NCBI GenBank assembly: GCA_965198235.1
Contig: OZ240248.1
Location: forward strand, 5,024,001-5,088,000
Reading direction: 5' to 3'
DNA: 64,000 nt
DNA from: Candidatus Poribacteria bacterium
GTDB taxonomy: Bacteria; Poribacteria; WGA-4E; WGA-3G
Under the pieces are notes generated by a model. The model searched no databases, was not told the origin of the DNA, and saw nothing but the letters and a program-made list of their open reading frames with translations. Shown here piece by piece: positions 11,804-50,136 of the stretch (position 1 is its first letter; each line of letters starts with the position of its first letter). Position numbers and translations under genes: made by a program.

Positions 11804-13150
11804 TTACACCCACGAAGATCCTAACTCGTGCACCTTCAATGATACTATAGTTACTGGATTTCCCTCCGTGTAGATTCCGATATCTGCGTTCTCCTGATCT
11901 GGGAGGAAATAGGATGTCATTGAGAGCTTACCATCGTCTCCGAATGCTTCGATAGAAATACGGTCGACTAAAATTTGCAAGCGGATTTTCCCATTTTGTG
12001 GCGCGAGGGGTCCGCTCTTTTCTAAGAATGTTAGTTGCTGCGATTCAACATCGTAACGGACATCCTGCCCGCGAATTTTGAAACCAACGGCGGTAGCATC
12101 GTTCAGGGCTATTTCAGCACGGATGTCGAACAACTCACCCGTCAGTCCAGAAAGCGGATCTTCATCCGGCTTGAGCGGGAGATCGCTCCACGCGTGCGTA
12201 TACATGTGGATATTTTCGATCTCTGAGACCGGTTCTCGATGTAGACGTATACCTTCTGGAGTCGTCCGAAGGGTCAACTTGCACGGAAAGCTCATCTGTT
12301 GATTAAAAGGCATATCCGGTGGGTTACTGCCACTCATCCAAGCGATTTGAATACGTCTGCCATCGGATTCTGGGACATCGCTCCATGTTTGCGCTGCATA
12401 GAAGTTGGCACCGTAGTCAGAGCGTTGTGCGTCCCTTTCCGGAGTAAAGGTCGTTCCATCGAAATTACCGACGTAATATTTCCCTGCCGCACCCCAGAAA
12501 ACCCATTTGGTATTATCGGGATCACCGTCAACGGGAAGCTCAAAGATGTCGGGGCATTCTGTGTCGGGAATCTGTAAGTCGGATAACCGTGTCCACTCCT
12601 TAAGGTTTGTCGAACCGAATAAGGTGTAGTCATTTTGGTCAAGATAGAGAGCCATCACCCACTTTTGCGTCGGTTCGTGCCAGATCACCTTGGGGTCGCG
12701 GTTACTCCCGACAAGATGTTCAATCACGGGATTCCCTTCATATTTTGTCCAACTTCGTCCGCGATCGTTGCTGTAGGCGATACTTTGTGTAAATGGAACC
12801 TCTTTCGGAGCGTGGCTGCCTGCCGACGTGTAAAAATTGACGAGTACCGCCTCGTCGCCGGTCTGAAAACCACCGGTATTCTTCCAGTCCACGACACCAG
12901 AGCCGGAGAAGATTGTACCGAGTTCATCTGGATGGAGGGCATGCGGAAGTTGCTTCCAGTGGACGAGGTCTGTGCTGACAGCGTGTCCCCAGGTCATATT
13001 GCCCCAATCGATACCGGATGGGTTGTGTTGGAAGAAGAGGTGAAATTCGCCTTTGTAGTGGATTAAACCGTTCGGGTCGTTAGTCCAATTGGTTTTCGGT
13101 GTAAAGTGGAACTGTGGACGATACGCTTCCTTGTAAGCCGTTTGAATCAT
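11804..13150 (-). CDS. Glycoside hydrolase family 32 (levanase/beta-fructosidase)
   Basis: WTNDPNG, WGHAVS, FSGS, RDPKV, ECPD motifs. Confidence 0.95.
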   Translation of the reverse strand: MIQTAYKEAYRPQFHFTPKTNWTNDPNGLIHYKGEFHLFFQHNPSGIDWGNMTWGHAVSTDLVHWKQLPHALHPDELGTIFSGSGVVDWKNTGGFQTGDEAVLVNFYTSAGSHAPKEVPFTQSIAYSNDRGRSWTKYEGNPVIEHLVGSNRDPKVIWHEPTQKWVMALYLDQNDYTLFGSTNLKEWTRLSDLQIPDTECPDIFELPVDGDPDNTKWVFWGAAGKYYVGNFDGTTFTPERDAQRSDYGANFYAAQTWSDVPESDGRRIQIAWMSGSNPPDMPFNQQMSFPCKLTLRTTPEGIRLHREPVSEIENIHMYTHAWSDLPLKPDEDPLSGLTGELFDIRAEIALNDATAVGFKIRGQDVRYDVESQQLTFLEKSGPLAPQNGKIRLQILVDRISIEAFGDDGKLSMTSYFLPDQENADIGIYTEGNPVTIVSLKVHELGSSWV

Positions 13151-13525: not shown

Positions 13526-15067
13526 GTGATAAACCTTTGTAATGTCCTAAATAGTTCGATACGTCTACAGGTGCAGGCACATTGGGAACCGATTGCGGAT
13601 TCTACGTTTCGTATGCACAAGACATCGCCAGAACACGTTGAACTCTTCGATCTGTCACCAAACCATCCTGTCAAAGAATACAGGACAGACGCTTTCAAGG
13701 CATTTCTTCCGTCATCAACTGTAGGGGTGGGTGATGTTTGGGAACTTGATCCGAACAGTGTTGTCTCTTTCCTGCGCCAGTTTCATTCCGGTGTGACCAC
13801 ACCCGTATATCACGGTGCGGAGGGTGCGTTCGCCTGCTTACGTGCTTTTTCGTCAGTTTACGCTGAGATTGTTTTCCGAATTCATGCGGACTTCACGTTG
13901 GAAAGCGTCGCTTATGAGAAGTGGCGTGCCGCCAACGCCTCGGAGGACGACGATAATAAATCCCGTTTTGTCCCCTCCCATTTCGTCGGACGATTGTTAA
14001 TCAATTTGAAAGAAGGAACGGTTCGGGTGTTTTCGCTCTATCTGCCGGCACGCAATAGTAACGTTGTCATCAGTGCTTTTGGCGGTATTGATATGGTTTA
14101 TGTGCCGCGTATGGAACTCCTCGCTACGGACGAGACCGACAAAGACGAGATCGCGTGGGATGCTGCTATTACAACGGAAGAGGCACACCGGATGTTGGAA
14201 TTGAAGTTCTATAAATTCGCTGAGATTGATTGGCTACCGATTGATGAGGCAGTTGCACAGGCGAAAGCGACCAATCGTCCGATCCATGCAATCCTCGTCT
14301 GGGGGTGTTTAGACGATGAATCCTGCTGAGCGAACGGCAAATATTTGAGGGCGGGTCCGCTCTCCGATTCAGAAGTGATAACAACGCTCAACGAGAAGTT
14401 TGTCAATACATGGGTGCTCCTCCGGGAATTGCCAGAACTAATAGGTGGTGCGAAAGGCGAGGCGGTCAGCCTCGTCGCAAAAGAGATAAAACGCCACTAC
14501 ACTGACTCTGTAGATATTCTGGCACTCACCCCCGATGCGGAAGTTATCATGCATCAGCCGGAGATGGCTCTACCGTACAGGAACCAGGCGCAAGCGTATC
14601 TAAAAGTGTTACAGCATGCTGTGGACGCATTTGAAGGGAGACGCACCCGTGTAGGCAACGCGTCAAAATTAGATCGGAACCCGATCAGCTTGGGGACGGA
14701 GTTGATGGAGGTTTTACACGTTTTTAGCACATCCGACACCAATACCCCGACTTACACAGTTATTGAAATTGATACGACACCGTTTGAACGCGGTGGGATC
14801 CTCCACATTGAAATACATGTGGGTGAGAACAGGTTGGCAGGAACGTTTGAATTGTTTGATGCAGATACCGAAATTTCTACAAAAAATGATGAAGATGAAA
14901 CTCTGGATGGTGCATGGAACGTTTCATCCGGTGGTGTAGGGCACATCTTTCACGATTTTAGTCGGGGTCGGCGTTTCAAGTTAGTCGCTACAGGGGCAAA
15001 CAACCAAAAGAGTGTTTCCAATGCTTTTCTGGCACGTGTCTCTATCGTCCCACCGTTTGAAAAATAG
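13526..15067 (+). CDS. Selenoprotein N-like protein 1 (TGA 14327-14329 read as Sec; about 513 aa)
   Basis: ORFs 13526..14329 and 14345..15067 are in the same frame and join as ILVWGCLDDESC-[TGA]-ANGKYLRAGPLSD, matching human SELENON LLWGALDDQSCUGSGRTLR. GGAGG RBS before the GTG start. Confidence 0.85.
14347..14364 (+). promoter_or_regulatory. Putative bacterial SECIS hairpin
   Basis: GAGGGCG-(GGTC loop)-CGCTCTC starting 18 nt after the TGA. Confidence 0.65.
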
Positions 15068-15357: not shown

Positions 15358-16398
15358 ATGAAACATAAGTCGGTTTCTCCTTTTTTAGGAGTTGGAGGCT
15401 GCACCAAATTTCTAATATTCAGTTATGCTATCAGTGCCCTACTCATGTTCAGCGGCAGCACTGCTGTATGGGCAAAAGCCCCGGAGACAGCGAAAATTAC
15501 ATTTATGTCAAAGCGGGACGGTAACGCTGAGATCTATATCATGAACCCCGACGGGAGTGAGCAAGTCAATCTCACCCAACATCGTGCAGCCGATTATACA
15601 CCAGCCTGGTCGCCAAACGGGAAACAGATATTGTTCAGCTCAGATCGAGATGGAATTTTTGATTTGTATCTTATGGACGCAGATGGCACAAATGTCCGGA
15701 AGGTGTTCGCAAGCAGCAAATACAGATGGGAGCCTGCCTGGTCGCCCGATGGTAAACGAATTGCCTATGCACAAGGAGATCCAGGAAAGGCAAAACTACA
15801 GTTTGGGTTACGATTTGTCCCTTACGCCGATCTCACACTTTACATCGCAACACTAAATGGAGACTCCGTTGAGAAATTGACGGATGGATTTGGTCCGAGT
15901 TGGTCTCCTGATGGACACGAGATAGCCTTTGTGGTGGGTGGTCGCAAAAGTACACTACTGGGTATTTACGACTTGAGGAAACGTTCCCAAAAAACGCTCA
16001 TCTCAAAGAAGATGCCGTGGATATTTGATCCCAGCTGGTCTGCACAGGGTGACAGAATAGCTTTCGCGAAACTCGAGGGTGCTGCGTTTGATGCACAAGG
16101 TTTTCTTAGGTTTAAGAAGGGTACGATTTACACCATAGATAGTGCTGGGGGTGGACTTCATCAGATTACCGACGAGAACTCTTCTGACCCAACCTGGTCC
16201 CCAGATGGCAGCGAACTCATTTACAACTCTCGGGTGGGTTTTTCGCAACTCTTCAGAACGGGCTTGAACGGCGACAATCCAACACAACTGACGCATGACG
16301 GAAGTAATTTGAGTCCAGATTGGTTTGACCCCTTTTATAGCGTTTCGCCGTCGGCGCAATTGTTAACGACGATGTGGGGAAAAATCAAAGTGGATTAA
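15358..16398 (+). CDS. Secreted TolB-like (PD40 repeat) beta-propeller with SVSP...TMWGKIK tail
   Basis: Repeated PxWSPDG motifs and a signal peptide. Confidence 0.85.
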
Positions 16399-16487
16399 GT
16401 TAACTATAAATCGTTCCAGATTCAGGGCAGTGAATGCCTTTTGCTTCCAATTGTCAAAATTTATTCCCAGATTTTCATTTTTTTTCA

Positions 16488-16530
16488 GAATTAGGCAACC
16501 GTTTTTCCGATCCTCCGCGTCACTATATAT
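16488..16530 (+). promoter_or_regulatory. ECF-type promoter motif, copy 2
   Basis: GAATTAGGCAAC-N17-GCGTCACTATATAT. Confidence 0.7.
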
Positions 16531-16594
16531 CAACACGATATTTGTGTGACAAATTTTGGAAGATTCAAATGACTCCATAGGAGGAAGCGAAAAC

Positions 16595-17416
16595 ATGTTA
16601 CGGACATTTACTGCTGCTTTTTCGAGTGTCATTATGCTATTGCTGGCAGCTTCTGCCAACGCGGGTTTGGATGAAGATCTCGTTTTTTATCTGACCTTTG
16701 ATAACGTTAAAAATCAGACGATTATTGATGAATCTGGCAATGGTCTTGATGCAGAAATACTTGAGCATGTCGAGATTGTCAAGGGTAAATATGGAGATGC
16801 AATCCGTCTTAAAGGTCAAAGCGGGGATTGCGTTAATATCCCTGCTCAAGAGAAATTGAAAGTTATAGGCGAGATAACAATGATGGCATGGATTTATTCT
16901 CCAGAAACATGGAACAACGAGAAGATGCATTGGCTGGAAAAAGATTGTCATTTCGTTGTTCCGATTGGTTGGGCGCACTGTTACGGTATCGCTGGTGTTG
17001 ATGTCGGTAACGGACCAGAAATCTTTTTGTTTTTGGGATCACAGGTAGAGGGGAAATGGGACCGGCAGGAGTTCAGAACTCCACATAAAATGGGCGAAAA
17101 AAAATGGCATCACGTTGTCGGAAGTTACGATGGCGAAACCATGAAAATCTATGTGGATGGTACAGTCATAGGGGAAGAAAAGAAAAAATTCAATTTCTTT
17201 GGAGACAATGACGCGGACGTTCGGATCGGATGTGCAAAAGATGTCCCCCACCTTACATTCACAAACGGCTCTATTGATGAAGCTGCGGTCTGGCAACGAG
17301 CACTGAGTGATGATGAAATTAAACAAGCCATGACAGGGAACTTTCTCGCTGTTTCGCCGAGCGATAAAGTGGCGACGACTTGGGCGGATATGAAAAGAAG
17401 AGCAGTCGTTCCTTAA
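16595..17416 (+). CDS. Secreted LamG-like protein with AVSP...TTWADMK tail
   Basis: ATG 16595 follows a GGAGG RBS and matches the start of the paralog. Signal peptide, WHHVVGSYDG, IDEAAVW. Confidence 0.85.
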   Translation: MLRTFTAAFSSVIMLLLAASANAGLDEDLVFYLTFDNVKNQTIIDESGNGLDAEILEHVEIVKGKYGDAIRLKGQSGDCVNIPAQEKLKVIGEITMMAWIYSPETWNNEKMHWLEKDCHFVVPIGWAHCYGIAGVDVGNGPEIFLFLGSQVEGKWDRQEFRTPHKMGEKKWHHVVGSYDGETMKIYVDGTVIGEEKKKFNFFGDNDADVRIGCAKDVPHLTFTNGSIDEAAVWQRALSDDEIKQAMTGNFLAVSPSDKVATTWADMKRRAVVP

Positions 17417-17459
17417 CGGCTACCTGCAAAGTCAGAATTTCCCCATAAAGGAATGTAGG

Positions 17460-18482
17460 ATGAAAACAATACGGTTGTTAGTTTTTGCCATATTGAACAT
17501 ATTGATGCTGAACGTAAGCGTTTGCCTCGCTTTCGCAACAGCACCCACAACCGCCAAAATTCTGTTCACCTCTTCACGGGACGGCAATTATGAGGTCTAC
17601 ATCATGAATCCGGACGGTAGTGAACAGGTGAATTTAACACAACATCGCGCAAATGATTTTCAAGCCGTATGGTCCCCCACTGGGGAGCAGATTCTTTTTG
17701 TCTCCGATCGCGATGGCGGCATCCGAGACTTGTATCTGATGGACCCCAGTGGATCCAATGTCCGACGCGTTTTCACGAGGAAACGAAAGTCTTATAGGGA
17801 TTCTCCGACGTGGGCACCCGATGGCAACCAGATTGCTTACGTACACCTGAATTGGAACGGTGTCAGGTTCCATATCTACGTTGCAATCTTGGGTAAACAA
17901 AAAGAGGAACACCTCGTTGAGGGTAGACGTCCGACGTGGTCACCCGATGGAACGAAAATAGCATATATGTCTTATATTGTAGATACCTGCCGAATTGCTC
18001 TTATTGACCCCCACACACGAAGGCAAAAACACCTCCTATCGAGGAAAGCAACGCCTTGGCAAAATCATCCATTTTGGTCGGCTACGGGGAGCAAACTCGC
18101 TTTTTCTTGGAATAAGAATCCGTTACCGCGCCTTTTGCCGGGTGATCGTTTCCCATCCGTATGGCTGGATAAGGAGACAATCTATATTGTGAACAGCGAC
18201 GGGACCGATCTCCGAGAACTTCTGGATGAAGCTGGGCCCAGAGCACAGTATCCAGTGTTGTCGCCAGACGGGAAAGAGGTACTTTATACACAAGAAATTA
18301 AGGGTCGCCTACAAATTTTCAAACTTGATGTACACAGTGCCACTCGGGCACAGTTGACAAATATCGGGCGAGTCTTTGAGGCGAATTTCGGAGGGGATTG
18401 GTTCGATCCTGTGTATTCGTTGCCTGTTTCGCCACAATCGCGACTGCTAAGCACAGTATGGGGAAAAGTAAAAAAGAAATAG
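17460..18482 (+). CDS. Secreted TolB-like (PD40 repeat) beta-propeller with PVSP...TVWGKVK tail
   Basis: WSPDG-type repeats; paralog of 15358..16398. Confidence 0.85.
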   Translation: MKTIRLLVFAILNILMLNVSVCLAFATAPTTAKILFTSSRDGNYEVYIMNPDGSEQVNLTQHRANDFQAVWSPTGEQILFVSDRDGGIRDLYLMDPSGSNVRRVFTRKRKSYRDSPTWAPDGNQIAYVHLNWNGVRFHIYVAILGKQKEEHLVEGRRPTWSPDGTKIAYMSYIVDTCRIALIDPHTRRQKHLLSRKATPWQNHPFWSATGSKLAFSWNKNPLPRLLPGDRFPSVWLDKETIYIVNSDGTDLRELLDEAGPRAQYPVLSPDGKEVLYTQEIKGRLQIFKLDVHSATRAQLTNIGRVFEANFGGDWFDPVYSLPVSPQSRLLSTVWGKVKKK

Positions 18483-18562
18483 TGTCATAGGTAGAATCAC
18501 CATGAAACTGCTGTGTTATGCACGTTTTCCGCTTTGTGTATCATATTTTCTTTATGTTTGCA

Positions 18563-18605
18563 GAATTAGGCAACCGTTTTGTCTGTCTCCCGCGTCATTA
18601 TATAT
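18563..18605 (+). promoter_or_regulatory. ECF-type promoter motif, copy 3
   Basis: GAATTAGGCAAC-N17-GCGTCATTATATAT. Confidence 0.7.
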
Positions 18606-18669
18606 CGATACGATAGCTGTGTGACAAATTTTAGAAAGTTCAAATGACTCTATAGGAGGAACAGAAAAC

Positions 18670-19491
18670 ATGTTACGGACATTTATTGCTGCTTTTTCGA
18701 GTGTCGTTATACTGTTGTTGGCAGCTCCTGCCAACGCAGGTTTGAATGAGAAACTCGTTTTTTATCTGACGTTTGATAATGTTAAAGATCAGACAGTTGT
18801 TGACGAATCTGGGAATGGTCAGGACGCAGAGATACTTGAGAACACCGAGATTGTCAGGGGCAAATATGGGAATGCCATTCATATTACAGATGATGGTCAG
18901 GATTGCGTCAGTATTCCTTCTCAGGAAAAACTGAAAATTACAAGCGAAATAACAATGATGACCTGGATTTATTATCAAGAAACATGGAAAGGCAAAAGGA
19001 TGTTGCATTGGCTTGATAAAGGCTGCCATTCGGGAGACGGTTGGGCTGGAACTTACGGTATCGGCAGTTCCGATATCGGTAACGGACCAGAGATTGTGTT
19101 GTTTTTCGGGTCGCGGGAGAAACAGGGGATTACGGACCGGCATGAATTCGCAGTTCTACACAAAATGGGTGTTCAAAAATGGCATCATGTTGCTGGGAGC
19201 TACGATGGGAAAACCATGAAAATTTATTTAGATGGTAAAGTCATAGGTGCGGAAAAGAAGAATTTCAATCTCTTTGGTGGTAATAACGTGAACCTCAGGA
19301 TCGGATGCGCAAAAAACAGCCCGCAGTATGCATTTGCCAACGGTTCTATTGACGAAGCCGCAGTCTGGCAACGAGCATTGAGTGATGATGAAATCAAGCA
19401 GGCGATGGTAGGGGACTTCCTCGCTGTTTCACCGAGTGATAAAGTTGCAACGACTTGGGCGGATGTGAAAAAGAGGATGATAGCCCGTTAG
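18670..19491 (+). CDS. Secreted LamG-like protein with AVSP...TTWADVK tail
   Basis: Close paralog of 16595..17416. Confidence 0.87.
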   Translation: MLRTFIAAFSSVVILLLAAPANAGLNEKLVFYLTFDNVKDQTVVDESGNGQDAEILENTEIVRGKYGNAIHITDDGQDCVSIPSQEKLKITSEITMMTWIYYQETWKGKRMLHWLDKGCHSGDGWAGTYGIGSSDIGNGPEIVLFFGSREKQGITDRHEFAVLHKMGVQKWHHVAGSYDGKTMKIYLDGKVIGAEKKNFNLFGGNNVNLRIGCAKNSPQYAFANGSIDEAAVWQRALSDDEIKQAMVGDFLAVSPSDKVATTWADVKKRMIAR

Positions 19492-48466: not shown

Positions 48467-48736
48467 GACTATGCACCCAGGGTTGACAAGCTCCTCCAGG
48501 CGTTGCCCGCGTCGTTAGTTCAGGTTAGGCACCCTTGCGTCACACGAGCAACTTATCTACCGCTGCTTCCTTCCGGACCTGACGGGGTTCAACAAGCGCC
48601 CGTTGCTCAAGACCCAACCATCAACACCACGTGCGCGGGACAGTCCCCACAGAAACGGGCCGCATACTGGGGATTCAGTCCTGCTTTAGCGGATTGCAGG
48701 ATACAGGGCACCGCTACCTCCCCACCTAGCATAGCC
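48467..48736 (-). ncRNA. ffs: Large bacterial SRP RNA (Alu-domain type)
   Basis: 5' GCTAGGTGGGGAGGTAGCGGTGCCCTGT like Bacillus scRNA; conserved CAGGTCCGGAAGGAAGCAGC; 5' and 3' ends pair; upstream of dnaX. Confidence 0.92.
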
Positions 48737-48798
48737 AAGGCGTTAATTATTCTTGAACAGTTATATAGCAAGTTTTGACTTGCAAGCTGCGTCAAAAG

Positions 48799-48890
48799 TG
48801 GCGGAGAGAGTGGGATTCGAACCCACGGTACTGCAAAACAGCACACATGATTTCCAGTCATGCCAGTTCAACCAACTCCTGCATCTCTCC
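48799..48890 (-). tRNA. tRNA-Ser(GGA)
   Basis: Cloverleaf, CT-GGA-AA loop, long variable arm, encoded CCA. Confidence 0.95.
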
Positions 48891-49028
48891 GTAAAATTTT
48901 CAGGGACATCTCATCAAGCCGCACGCGATATGAGATGGGAAATCTGGTTTAAAAACAAATTTCGACCTAATTCCAGATCGAAGAATGTAAATCAAAGACA
49001 AATTGTGCTTTAATAGCACAATTTCGTA

Positions 49029-49101
49029 TGGAGCAGACGGGATTTGAACCCGTGACCTCACCCGTGCGAGGGGCGCACTCTCCCAACTGAGCTACTGCCC
49101 C
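49029..49101 (-). tRNA. tRNA-Ala(CGC)
   Basis: G3:U70 acceptor pair, CT-CGC-AC loop. Confidence 0.93.
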
Positions 49102-49161
49102 AGAAGTGGAAAAAACAAACATTTTGCAACAGTTATTTTTCACCTACCATTAAGCAAAAAA

Positions 49162-49246
49162 CGGAGAGAGTGGGATTCGAACCCACGGTGACTTGCGCCA
49201 CAACAGTTTTCGAGACTGTCCAGTTCAACCACTCCTGCATCTCTCC
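49162..49246 (-). tRNA. tRNA-Ser(CGA)
   Basis: CT-CGA-AA loop, long variable arm. Confidence 0.95.
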
Positions 49247-49311
49247 TTCTGATGTAATCTCTCCAACCCATAGTAACGGGTGGCACACATCCCAGCCTTC
49301 CATAAACCTTT

Positions 49312-49770
49312 TTACACTTTACTACGGTGTTGCTGAAAAAAGGACTTCAGAAGGGCACCGCTCTCTTCTGCTAATATCCCGCTCACCAATTCAACCCGAT
49401 GATTCAATCGTTCATCTTGAAGGATATTATAGAGCGTTCCGGCTGCCCCTGATTTCGGGTCTGTTGTTGCGTAAACAACTCTTGGAATACGTGCTAACAC
49501 GATCGCCCCGGCACACATTGGACAGGGCTCTAACGTCACATATAGGGTCGTATCGACAAAACGCCAGTTACCAATTTTTTCGGATGCGGCTTGTAGGACA
49601 AGCATCTCCGCGTGGGCGATAGGACTGCCGCATGCTTCGCGTAAGTTAAATGCTTCAGCGATCAGGACATCGTCTCTAACAAGCAGAGCACCAACTGGCA
49701 CTTCTCCTTTTTCGCCCGCCTGCTGCGCTAATTTAAGAGCTTGCCCCATCCAGAAAAAATCGTTATCCAA
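49312..49770 (-). CDS. tadA: tRNA adenosine(34) deaminase
   Basis: EVPVGA, AHAE, TLEPCPMCAGA, LNH motifs. Confidence 0.95.
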   Translation of the reverse strand: MDNDFFWMGQALKLAQQAGEKGEVPVGALLVRDDVLIAEAFNLREACGSPIAHAEMLVLQAASEKIGNWRFVDTTLYVTLEPCPMCAGAIVLARIPRVVYATTDPKSGAAGTLYNILQDERLNHRVELVSGILAEESGALLKSFFQQHRSKV

Positions 49771-49793
49771 ATTTTTTCAGCAAATGCCTTTGA

Positions 49794-49867
49794 AGCGCCT
49801 GAGAGGATTCGAACCCCCGGCCTTCTGATCCGTAGTCAGATGCTCTAATCCACTGAGCTACAGGCGC
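49794..49867 (-). tRNA. tRNA-Arg(ACG)
   Basis: TCTGA-CT-ACG-GA-TCAGA anticodon arm, GTTCGAATCC. Confidence 0.95.
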
Positions 49868-49960
49868 GTATGCTATGCATCAGGAATCAAAACGTAGGAC
49901 GGAGTTATAAGACTTTGATGGTCCTACAGTTCTCTGTCCTCTGATTTATTGCTTTACAAA

Positions 49961-50045
49961 CGGAGAGGGTGGGATTCGAACCCACGATGGCTTGCGCCAT
50001 AACTGCTTAGCAGGCAGTCCAGTTCAACCACTCCTGCACCTCTCC
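49961..50045 (-). tRNA. tRNA-Ser(GCT)
   Basis: CT-GCT-AA loop, long variable arm. Confidence 0.95.
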
Positions 50046-50048
50046 TAA

Positions 50049-50136
50049 TGGCGGTGGGAGTAGGATTCGAACCCACGATGGCTTGCGCCATAACGGTTTT
50101 CAAGACCGCCGCTTTCGTCCACTCAGCCATCCCACC
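50049..50136 (-). tRNA. tRNA-Ser(TGA)
   Basis: CT-TGA-AA loop, long variable arm, encoded CCA. Confidence 0.95.

Follow-up and report, generated by a model that had tools for sequence, protein, structure and literature searches.

Two genes within a 64,000-nucleotide stretch of the genome of a Candidatus Poribacteria bacterium (contig OZ240248.1, positions 5,024,001 to 5,088,000; hereafter, the window) encode proteins related to animal selenoprotein N (SelN), and each of them contains an in-frame UGA codon that is followed, within the coding sequence, by a short hairpin (Table 1). Each of these hairpins is very probably a bacterial selenocysteine insertion sequence (bSECIS) serving the SelB-dependent insertion of selenocysteine (Sec, U), as had been proposed in the initial annotation of this stretch. 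The fit of the hairpins to the bSECIS consensus, the covariation within their stems, the frozen synonymous sites and the presence of the selenocysteine machinery in the same genome argue for this proposal; the retention of the hairpin in homologues that lack Sec argues against it. It is from the anatomy of the hairpin, its conservation and the machinery that we infer SelB binding and Sec insertion at the two UGA codons. A ribosome arriving at the UGA would be met by SelB-GTP-Sec-tRNA(Sec), which would recognise the apical loop with its G and U located 23–24 nucleotides (nt) downstream; SelB would then deliver selenocysteine in place of termination, and the full-length product would be a thioredoxin-like redox protein, probably exported, whose active site contains a C-U pair.

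One 5' arm with two pairing registers

Both UGA codons and both hairpins lie on the sequence where the initial annotation had placed them, and the first base of each stem is indeed the 18th after the A of TGA, which leaves a spacer of 17 nt in both genes. The gene 1 hairpin comprises seven pairs, one of them G·U, and spans codons +6 to +12 (L-R-A-G-P-L-S); that of gene 2 comprises six pairs, again including one G·U, and spans codons +6 to +11 (L-R-A-V-V-L). RNAfold returned both hairpins as the centroid structure of their regions. The energy of the hairpin alone is −9.8 kcal/mol in gene 1 and −7.7 kcal/mol in gene 2 (−8.9 with two 3' dangling bases). An Rfam scan of the window at the gathering thresholds detected only the signal recognition particle (SRP) RNA and tRNAs, with no match at either hairpin.

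The two hairpins were compared with those of a family sample in which the U-equivalent codon was located by a 14-feature peptide score (cut-off of at least 10, all matches scoring at least 11). The sample consists of 207 distinct 210-nt segments, among which 196 carry TGA at this site, nine GGA or GGC, one TGG and one TGC; those with TGA represent 88 sources in eight genus groups and three families. With the T of TGA numbered as 0, the 5' arm of the hairpin is G20 A21 G22 R23 G24 C25, contributed by the codons for Leu (yUG), Arg (AGr) and Ala (GCn). In register A, which is that of the gene 1 type (L-R-A-G-P-L-S), this arm forms the pairs 20-37 through 26-31 and the loop is G27 G28 U29 C30, whereas in register B, that of the gene 2 type (L-R-A-[VG]-[VA]-L-x), the pairs run from 20-35 through 25-30 and the loop is A26 G27 K28 U29. 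Genes 1 and 2 represent two pairing registers of one common 5' arm: the claim that their hairpins are matched in position holds for the 5' arm and fails for the 3' arm, the partner of G20 being C37 in gene 1 but C35 in gene 2. A single register common to both genes was considered and rejected, because the register-A pair 25-32 would be a C-C mismatch in register-B genes, and because register B alone accommodates a sequence with A-U at 20-35 (L058) and the sequences of family f2 without the Ser codon.

The hairpin, with a stem of 6–7 bp and a loop of 4–6 nt, is present in all 196 UGA forms, and each of the 181 distinct 60-mers forms at least six consecutive pairs in one of the two registers. 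The loop is GGUC in the register A subfamily and AG(G/U)U in register B, the complete tally for the UGA forms being AGUU 69, AGGU 68, GGUC 54, AGGUGA 3, GGGUCA 1 and GGUG 1. Without exception among the 196, a G is present at loop position 1 or 2, G27 and U29 show no variation, the stem begins 17 nt after the UGA and the loop lies 23–24 nt from it. Taken alone, the hairpins have a mean energy of −8.36 kcal/mol and reach −7.5 kcal/mol or lower in 170 of the 196 UGA forms; the 47 nt that follow the UGA (nt 3-49) reach this value in 195. The legend to Fig. 2 of PMC13188914 describes the bSECIS consensus as a loop of 3–9 nt with a G at position 1 or 2 on a stem of 4–16 bp, and the same source gives a UGA-loop spacing of 16–37 nt, an energy of −7.5 kcal/mol or lower and a loop G that is mostly followed by G or U. 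All 196 UGA forms agree with this consensus in loop, stem, loop G and spacing, both window hairpins remain within the energy limit on their own, and the UGA is aligned with Cys in homologues (the C-C forms described below and, at the DNA level, the TGC of the Cys form L177). Like the elements that conform to the consensus, the stem-loop of this family sits in the coding region just 3' of the Sec-UGA and has an energy of about −8 to −10 kcal/mol; unlike them, it is a minimal hairpin that lacks a conserved lower stem or bulge and uses one 5' arm in two registers.

The SECIS of Escherichia coli fdhF has the apical loop GGUC, whose G and U contact SelB, and 11 nt separate the UGA from the minimal hairpin of this element, which contains a bulged U. 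The GGUC tetraloop is common to fdhF and the gene 1 subfamily, but the 11-nt spacer and the bulged U of the former contrast with the 17-nt spacer and the absence of a bulge here.

Compensatory changes, the lack of which among UGA-containing homologues the initial annotation would have taken as evidence against recoding, were found in both registers. Across the 122 distinct rows of register B, pairing is complete (732 of 732 cells) and two pairs are changed on both sides. Pair 23-32 occurs as G-C in 93 rows, as G·U in 18, as A-U in 11 and as A-C in none, pair 24-31 as G·U in 78, G-C in 40 and A-U in 4, and pair 20-35 as G-C in 120 and as A-U and G·U in one row each, this A-U arising by two synonymous changes (TTA...CTT). 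The covariation score of 0.187, compared with 0.151 ± 0.006 for shuffled alignments, was reached by none of 500 shuffles, and 49–77% of cells pair in controls with a slid register. The 49 rows of register A have 98.3% of their cells paired, with three pairs changed on both sides; pair 25-32 is C-G in 45 rows, U-A in 2 and U·G in 2, and pair 20-37 is G-C in 43, C-G in 2 and unpaired in 4. Here the score is 0.139 versus 0.101 ± 0.007, again reached by none of 500 shuffles, and 37–69% of cells pair in the slid controls. Several of the double changes consist of synonymous substitutions in both arms (AGG/GTC to AGA/GCT; TTG/CTC to TTA/CTT). Furthermore, RNAalifold predicts the hairpins of the two registers independently and finds no other conserved structure in the 54 nt after the UGA, nor a conserved lower stem or bulge. 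On a FastTree phylogeny of 201 rows and 962 columns, the 18 hairpin columns included, the states at 23-32 are GC in 101 rows, GU in 19, AU in 12 and AC in none. The G/A variation at position 23 provides nine independent contrasts, in which position 32 changes in the same way about five times, in the opposite way never, and is already U about four times.

RNAalifold additionally draws a second helix of 4–5 bp that encloses the UGA (window positions 20895-20907 and 14324-14339), in which the only changes are one-sided, from G-C to G·U; no covariation support for this small helix was obtained from the family alignments. The Cys codon that precedes the UGA (window positions 14324-14326 and 20895-20897) is TGC in 193 of the 196 UGA forms and TGT in six of the nine Gly forms, and the base 5' of the UGA may be constrained only as long as the UGA is present.

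The selenocysteine machinery is complete in the genome that contains the window. It includes a tRNA-Sec with the anticodon UCA (78.1 bits), an adjoining SelB open reading frame (ORF) of 671 amino acids (aa) with a SelB-wing_3 domain, SelA (517.7 bits) and SelD (359.8 bits), which has an in-frame TGA of its own. As a positive control from the same genome, SelD proved uninformative, only a weak 4-bp candidate stem with the loop CGGGU being found after its UGA; the SelD SECIS looks unlike the hairpins of the SelN family.

Homologues without UGA and competing explanations

Several observations weigh against the assignment of the hairpins as bSECIS elements. Folded singly, the window sequences are no better than shuffles (z = −0.21 and −0.89 for 60-nt folds), and the significance of the hairpins rests solely on the comparison with relatives. 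The sample used for this comparison is non-random, the 196 TGA segments being the better-scoring part of about 990 matches, and three of the 14 filter features are residues encoded by the hairpin itself, which introduces a small ascertainment bias. On their own, 26 of the 196 hairpins are weaker than −7.5 kcal/mol, and the phylogenetically independent sign test is borderline (median p 0.06). Finally, all 11 homologues without UGA (nine with Gly, one with Trp and one with Cys) keep the hairpin, with energies of −8.6 to −11.6 kcal/mol. In L177, the single sequence that provides the DNA evidence for Cys forms, CGA...GCA creates a C21-G36 pair where UGA forms have A21-U36, implying that pairing was maintained along that lineage.

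A stable hairpin kept in homologues that do not use Sec had been named in the initial annotation as grounds for abandoning the proposal of SelB-dependent recoding, and taken literally this is what is seen in 11 of 11 cases; we infer that recent UGA loss is the explanation, the non-UGA forms being apparently recent derivatives of UGA ancestors. One orthologous subfamily, with twelve UGA members besides, contains all nine Gly forms, whose scattering among the UGA members points to four or five recent changes of TGA to GGN. Their synonymous divergence (dS) from the nearest UGA orthologue is 0.28–0.45, with values of 0.11–0.20 within the Gly clades. G27 is changed to A in three of the nine (GTT to ACT) and U29 to C in one, and neither change occurs in the 196 UGA forms: the constraint on the loop relaxes after the UGA is lost. 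The Trp form (L151, TGG) does not differ in its hairpin core from relatives with UGA, L104 among them; this core includes a compensated C20-G37 pair that came about through Leu to Phe and Ser to Cys changes. The Cys form L177, which has TGC on the DNA and was recovered in a metagenome scan along with a further UGA form (L178), keeps six pairs and the GGUC loop; it is either a recent convert from a Sec ancestor or a case in which the stem is useful without the UGA. Another candidate, L176, from a scan of genome contigs for Cys-type DNA, was dismissed as a spurious repeat-like match.

At the Gly loci (L048-L053, L060, L061 and L064, all in other genomes), Sec was replaced by Gly (GGA or GGC) on each of the four or five occasions and never by Cys, and L064 also lacks the neighbouring Cys. 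The Gly copies have probably given up redox catalysis.

Persistence of the hairpin in all 11 non-UGA homologues would be expected of a general recoding or pausing hairpin similar to the selenocysteine redefinition element (SRE) of animal SEPN1, which would slow the ribosome or hinder the release factor while the SelB site, if any, would be elsewhere; a SelB-specific signal would not need to persist in this way. The short stem of 6–7 bp and the second small helix that includes the UGA can be read in the same sense. However, the loop bases G27 and U29, invariant in 196 of 196 UGA forms, are changed only in Gly forms, which points to sequence-specific recognition of the loop beyond the action of a mere obstacle. 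Moreover, the position, loop and stem fit the bSECIS consensus, no other conserved structure lies within 54 nt after the UGA and the UGA-enclosing helix shows one-sided changes only, so that an SRE-like function appears unlikely. An RNA role unrelated to the UGA, for instance in mRNA stability or for some other factor, with the position after the UGA being incidental, would account for the pairing-preserving changes with which the hairpin is kept in the Gly, Trp and Cys forms. Such a role is hard to reconcile with the offset of the stem from the UGA, fixed at 17 nt in all 196 sequences, with the status of the non-UGA forms as recent derivatives and with the appearance of loop changes only after UGA loss. 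We also know of no mRNA-stability or similar role for a coding hairpin of 16–18 nt, and consider this explanation very unlikely.

The remaining alternative dispenses with a functional RNA element and ascribes the pairing to the conserved peptide L-R-A-x-x-L-S, to codon bias and to common ancestry. The conservation of the peptide out to animals (L-R-E-x-x-L-E), the partial determination of the 5' arm by the amino acids and the close relatedness of many of the sequences could be taken to support it. Yet when 88 distinct decapeptides were kept and their codons drawn by genome usage, at least six pairs in either register were rebuilt in only 3.2% of 26,400 synonymous resamples, and the local energy of the resamples was −5.17 ± 2.55 kcal/mol compared with −9.85 observed. 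The Arg at +7 is encoded by AGR in 196 of 196 sequences, that is, by the rarest Arg codons (AGG 7.1% and AGA 11.9% of genome Arg usage, AGR 19%). The third-position entropy at positions 20, 23, 29 and 35 is 0.28, 0.52, 0.00 and 0.14 bits, compared with 1.3–1.8 bits at positions 38-59. Double compensatory changes occur at synonymous sites, A23 is never opposite C32 over the nine independent contrasts, and in paralogues at only 35% identity the stem is preserved with 3' arms that differ. The hairpin does not arise as a mere consequence of the peptide, and the synonymous sites in its stem and loop are frozen; that peptide, codon bias and ancestry together could replace an RNA element as the explanation is extremely improbable.

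Relationship to animal selenoprotein N and its redefinition element

The window proteins belong to a family with five members in this genome, paralogues that all have a single in-frame TGA, at a common site; to either side of the UGA, the products of genes 1 and 2 share 35% identity (E 1e-92). The family is greatly amplified in the phylum and was present in 131 of its 176 genomes. It is distributed over three families of one order (109 of 111, 10 of 11 and 11 of 29 genomes) and was found in none of the 24 genomes from the remaining families of the phylum. The copy number reaches a dozen per genome. Among the 150 matches listed of about 990, nearly all carry one in-frame TGA and many are arranged in tandem arrays; 843 further matches in the phylum lie beyond these 150. 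The relatives bear the name 'Candidatus Poribacteria bacterium', and the host bacteria are probable sponge symbionts. An HMMER scan of 1.84 billion representative proteins with a Gly-type homologue (P0003) returned 661 clusters, most of which stop exactly at the residue preceding the UGA, indicating that public gene calls truncate the family at this point. Cys is found at the U position in the database homologues P0139, P0140, P0148, P0158 and P0186 (C-C forms). Pfam and NCBIfam contained no family model for the window proteins, apart from a sub-threshold match to Thioredox_DsbH, and a PDB sequence search with them gave no match.

The scan with P0003 also retrieved P0267 (E 2.6e-20), a Nematostella protein with an EF-hand. 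Many vertebrate relatives of P0267, at 44–46% identity, carry the name Selenoprotein N, and the ESM Atlas cluster closest to it is 'selenoprotein N' (score 0.95). In BLASTP comparisons, the gene 2 protein (P0002) aligned with P0267 over 406 residues (E 1e-33) and the gene 1 protein (P0001) with coelacanth Selenoprotein N over 352 aa at 31% identity (E 1e-43). Both alignments cross the Sec site and the downstream segment ...G(K/R)xLRxxxL...LNxxF(V/I)xxW, and the homology of the two proteins to SelN is real. The motif S-C-U-G, reported for human SelN (PMC12839072), is exact in gene 2 and has the form S-C-U-A in gene 1. Unlike the animal proteins, P0001 and P0002 have no EF-hand detectable by Pfam, and the bacterial proteins possess an extra C-terminal domain of about 125 aa outside the region that aligns with animal SelN. 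Whereas animal SELENON combines an N-terminal transmembrane segment with an EF-hand, the gene 2 protein begins with a hydrophobic, signal-peptide-like N-terminus, its true start probably being the ATG at window position 20067; the GTG at 13526 is merely the first start codon in the gene 1 ORF and is given as a putative start. A 3'-UTR SECIS, residence in the endoplasmic reticulum and a part in the redox control of SERCA are eukaryotic traits of SELENON; the bacterial genes would instead rely on the hairpin within the coding sequence. Judged by these alignments, the window proteins are true homologues of animal selenoprotein N without its architecture. Full-text literature searches, with incomplete coverage of subscription journals, did not turn up any description of selenoprotein N homologues from bacteria, nor did term searches in PMC9312934, PMC13188914 and PMC2398784.

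An unrooted tree calculated from 10 bacterial and eight animal proteins unites the latter in a single long-branched clade and places other bacterial lineages between the two window paralogues. This tree weakly disfavours a recent transfer of a SelN-like gene from host to symbiont and, being unrooted, names no donor for a transfer between bacteria and animals.

Like the bacterial genes, animal SEPN1 has a coding-region stem-loop 3' of the UGA in a homologous protein. This SRE acts with a SECIS in the 3' untranslated region (3'-UTR), SBP2 and EFSec, and without SelB. The vertebrate SEPN1 coding hairpin, which has been classed as long, is described as starting less than 10 nt after the UGA (PMC1440920), whereas the bacterial stem starts after 17 nt. 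Stem, loop and spacer of the SRE are all reported to matter (PMC8704476), and the human SRE mutations described in PMC3541580 lie at codons +1, +4 and +7 after U462. The 5' arm of the bacterial hairpin consists of codons +6 to +8, including that of the conserved Arg +7, and its arms overall extend over codons +6 to +12; bacteria and animals have L+6, R+7 and L+11 in common, the codon overlap with the SRE being derived from protein alignments. Since the bacterial hairpin occupies codons +6 to +12 of a homologous peptide, it may be the counterpart of the SRE's apical portion. Descent of SRE and HRE elements from bSECIS has been proposed for SPS genes (Mariotti et al. 2015, PMC4561486), with the same argument for SPS2/SelD, namely a bacterial bSECIS and a eukaryotic stem-loop at the same place; in the sections of that article concerned, SelN figures only as a functionally tested SRE, and no bacterial SelN homologue enters the proposal.

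It is possible, if on balance doubtful, that the bacterial SelN hairpin and the animal SEPN1 SRE are the same RNA element by descent, positioned at homologous codons in homologous genes. What in bacteria was a SECIS bound by SelB would then have persisted in eukaryotes, after their adoption of a 3'-UTR SECIS, in an auxiliary role in UGA redefinition. The reverse course, with a transfer into bacteria followed by the recruitment of an SRE-like hairpin as a SECIS, is less likely. Should common descent hold, the best-studied SRE would gain a concrete bacterial counterpart, and selenoprotein N, a human disease gene of unclear biochemistry, would gain a large bacterial family for study; because the hairpin codons overlap the animal SRE, the idea that the SRE is a bSECIS relic becomes directly testable where the SRE was defined. 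Mutations of selenoprotein N cause SEPN1-related myopathy, and the biochemistry of the protein is poorly understood. Considered simply as an RNA element, the predicted bSECIS would be an ordinary one that is unusually well documented, in that some 200 natural variants reveal which bases may vary, one 5' arm serves two alternative 3' arms and, where the UGA was lost naturally, the loop is seen to be the first part to relax.

Genomic neighbourhood of the two genes

The features of the window are compiled in Table 1 together with the SelD gene located elsewhere in the genome.

Table 1 Coordinates of the genes, codons and RNA elements discussed (window positions, except for SelD)
Feature	Position	Strand	Details
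Gene 1, SelN-like selenoprotein	13526..15067	+	513 residues, U268, motif D-E-S-C-U-A-N-G-K, TGA read as U
Gene 1 in-frame UGA, predicted Sec codon	14327..14329	+	Aligned with TGA of 196 family segments and with TGC/TGG/GGN in 11 variants
Register-A hairpin, predicted bSECIS	14347..14364	+	5' arm GAGGGCG 14347-14353, loop GGTC (GGUC) 14354-14357, 3' arm CGCTCTC 14358-14364
Gene 2, SelN-like selenoprotein	20061..21746	+	561 residues, U280, motif D-E-S-C-U-G-S-G-K, TGA read as U
Gene 2 in-frame UGA, predicted Sec codon	20898..20900	+	Translation with TGA = U
Register-B hairpin, predicted bSECIS	20918..20933	+	5' arm GAGGGC 20918-20923, loop AGTT (AGUU) 20924-20927, 3' arm GTCCTC 20928-20933
Glycoside hydrolase family 32 gene	11804-13150	-	Just upstream of gene 1
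PD40 beta-propeller genes	15358-16398, 17460-18482	+	
Laminin_G_3 lectin-like genes	16556-17416, 18670-19491	+	
Bacterial large SRP RNA, then cluster of six tRNA genes	48469-50136	-	Rfam scan; SRP RNA 188.6 bits
SelD selenoprotein gene, outside the window	G000:C1:3115227-3116150	-	Motif VKCAG-U-ASK

Directly downstream of gene 2 (window positions 21843-23171, plus strand) lies a gene for an extracytoplasmic function (ECF) sigma factor with Sigma70_r2, r4 and ECF domains in residues 7-181. The C-terminal part of this gene (window positions 22779-23159) encodes a segment that is 58% identical to the last ~125 residues of the gene 2 protein. In the database homologue P0139, what appears, by eye only, to be an ECF-sigma N-terminus is fused to a selenoprotein-N-like domain. 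These observations hint at a regulatory link between ECF sigma factors and the SelN-like family. Genes 1 and 2 are separated by two alternating gene pairs on the plus strand (window positions 15358-19491), each composed of a PD40 beta-propeller gene and a Laminin_G_3 lectin-like gene, an array that looks like a tandem duplication of a two-gene unit.

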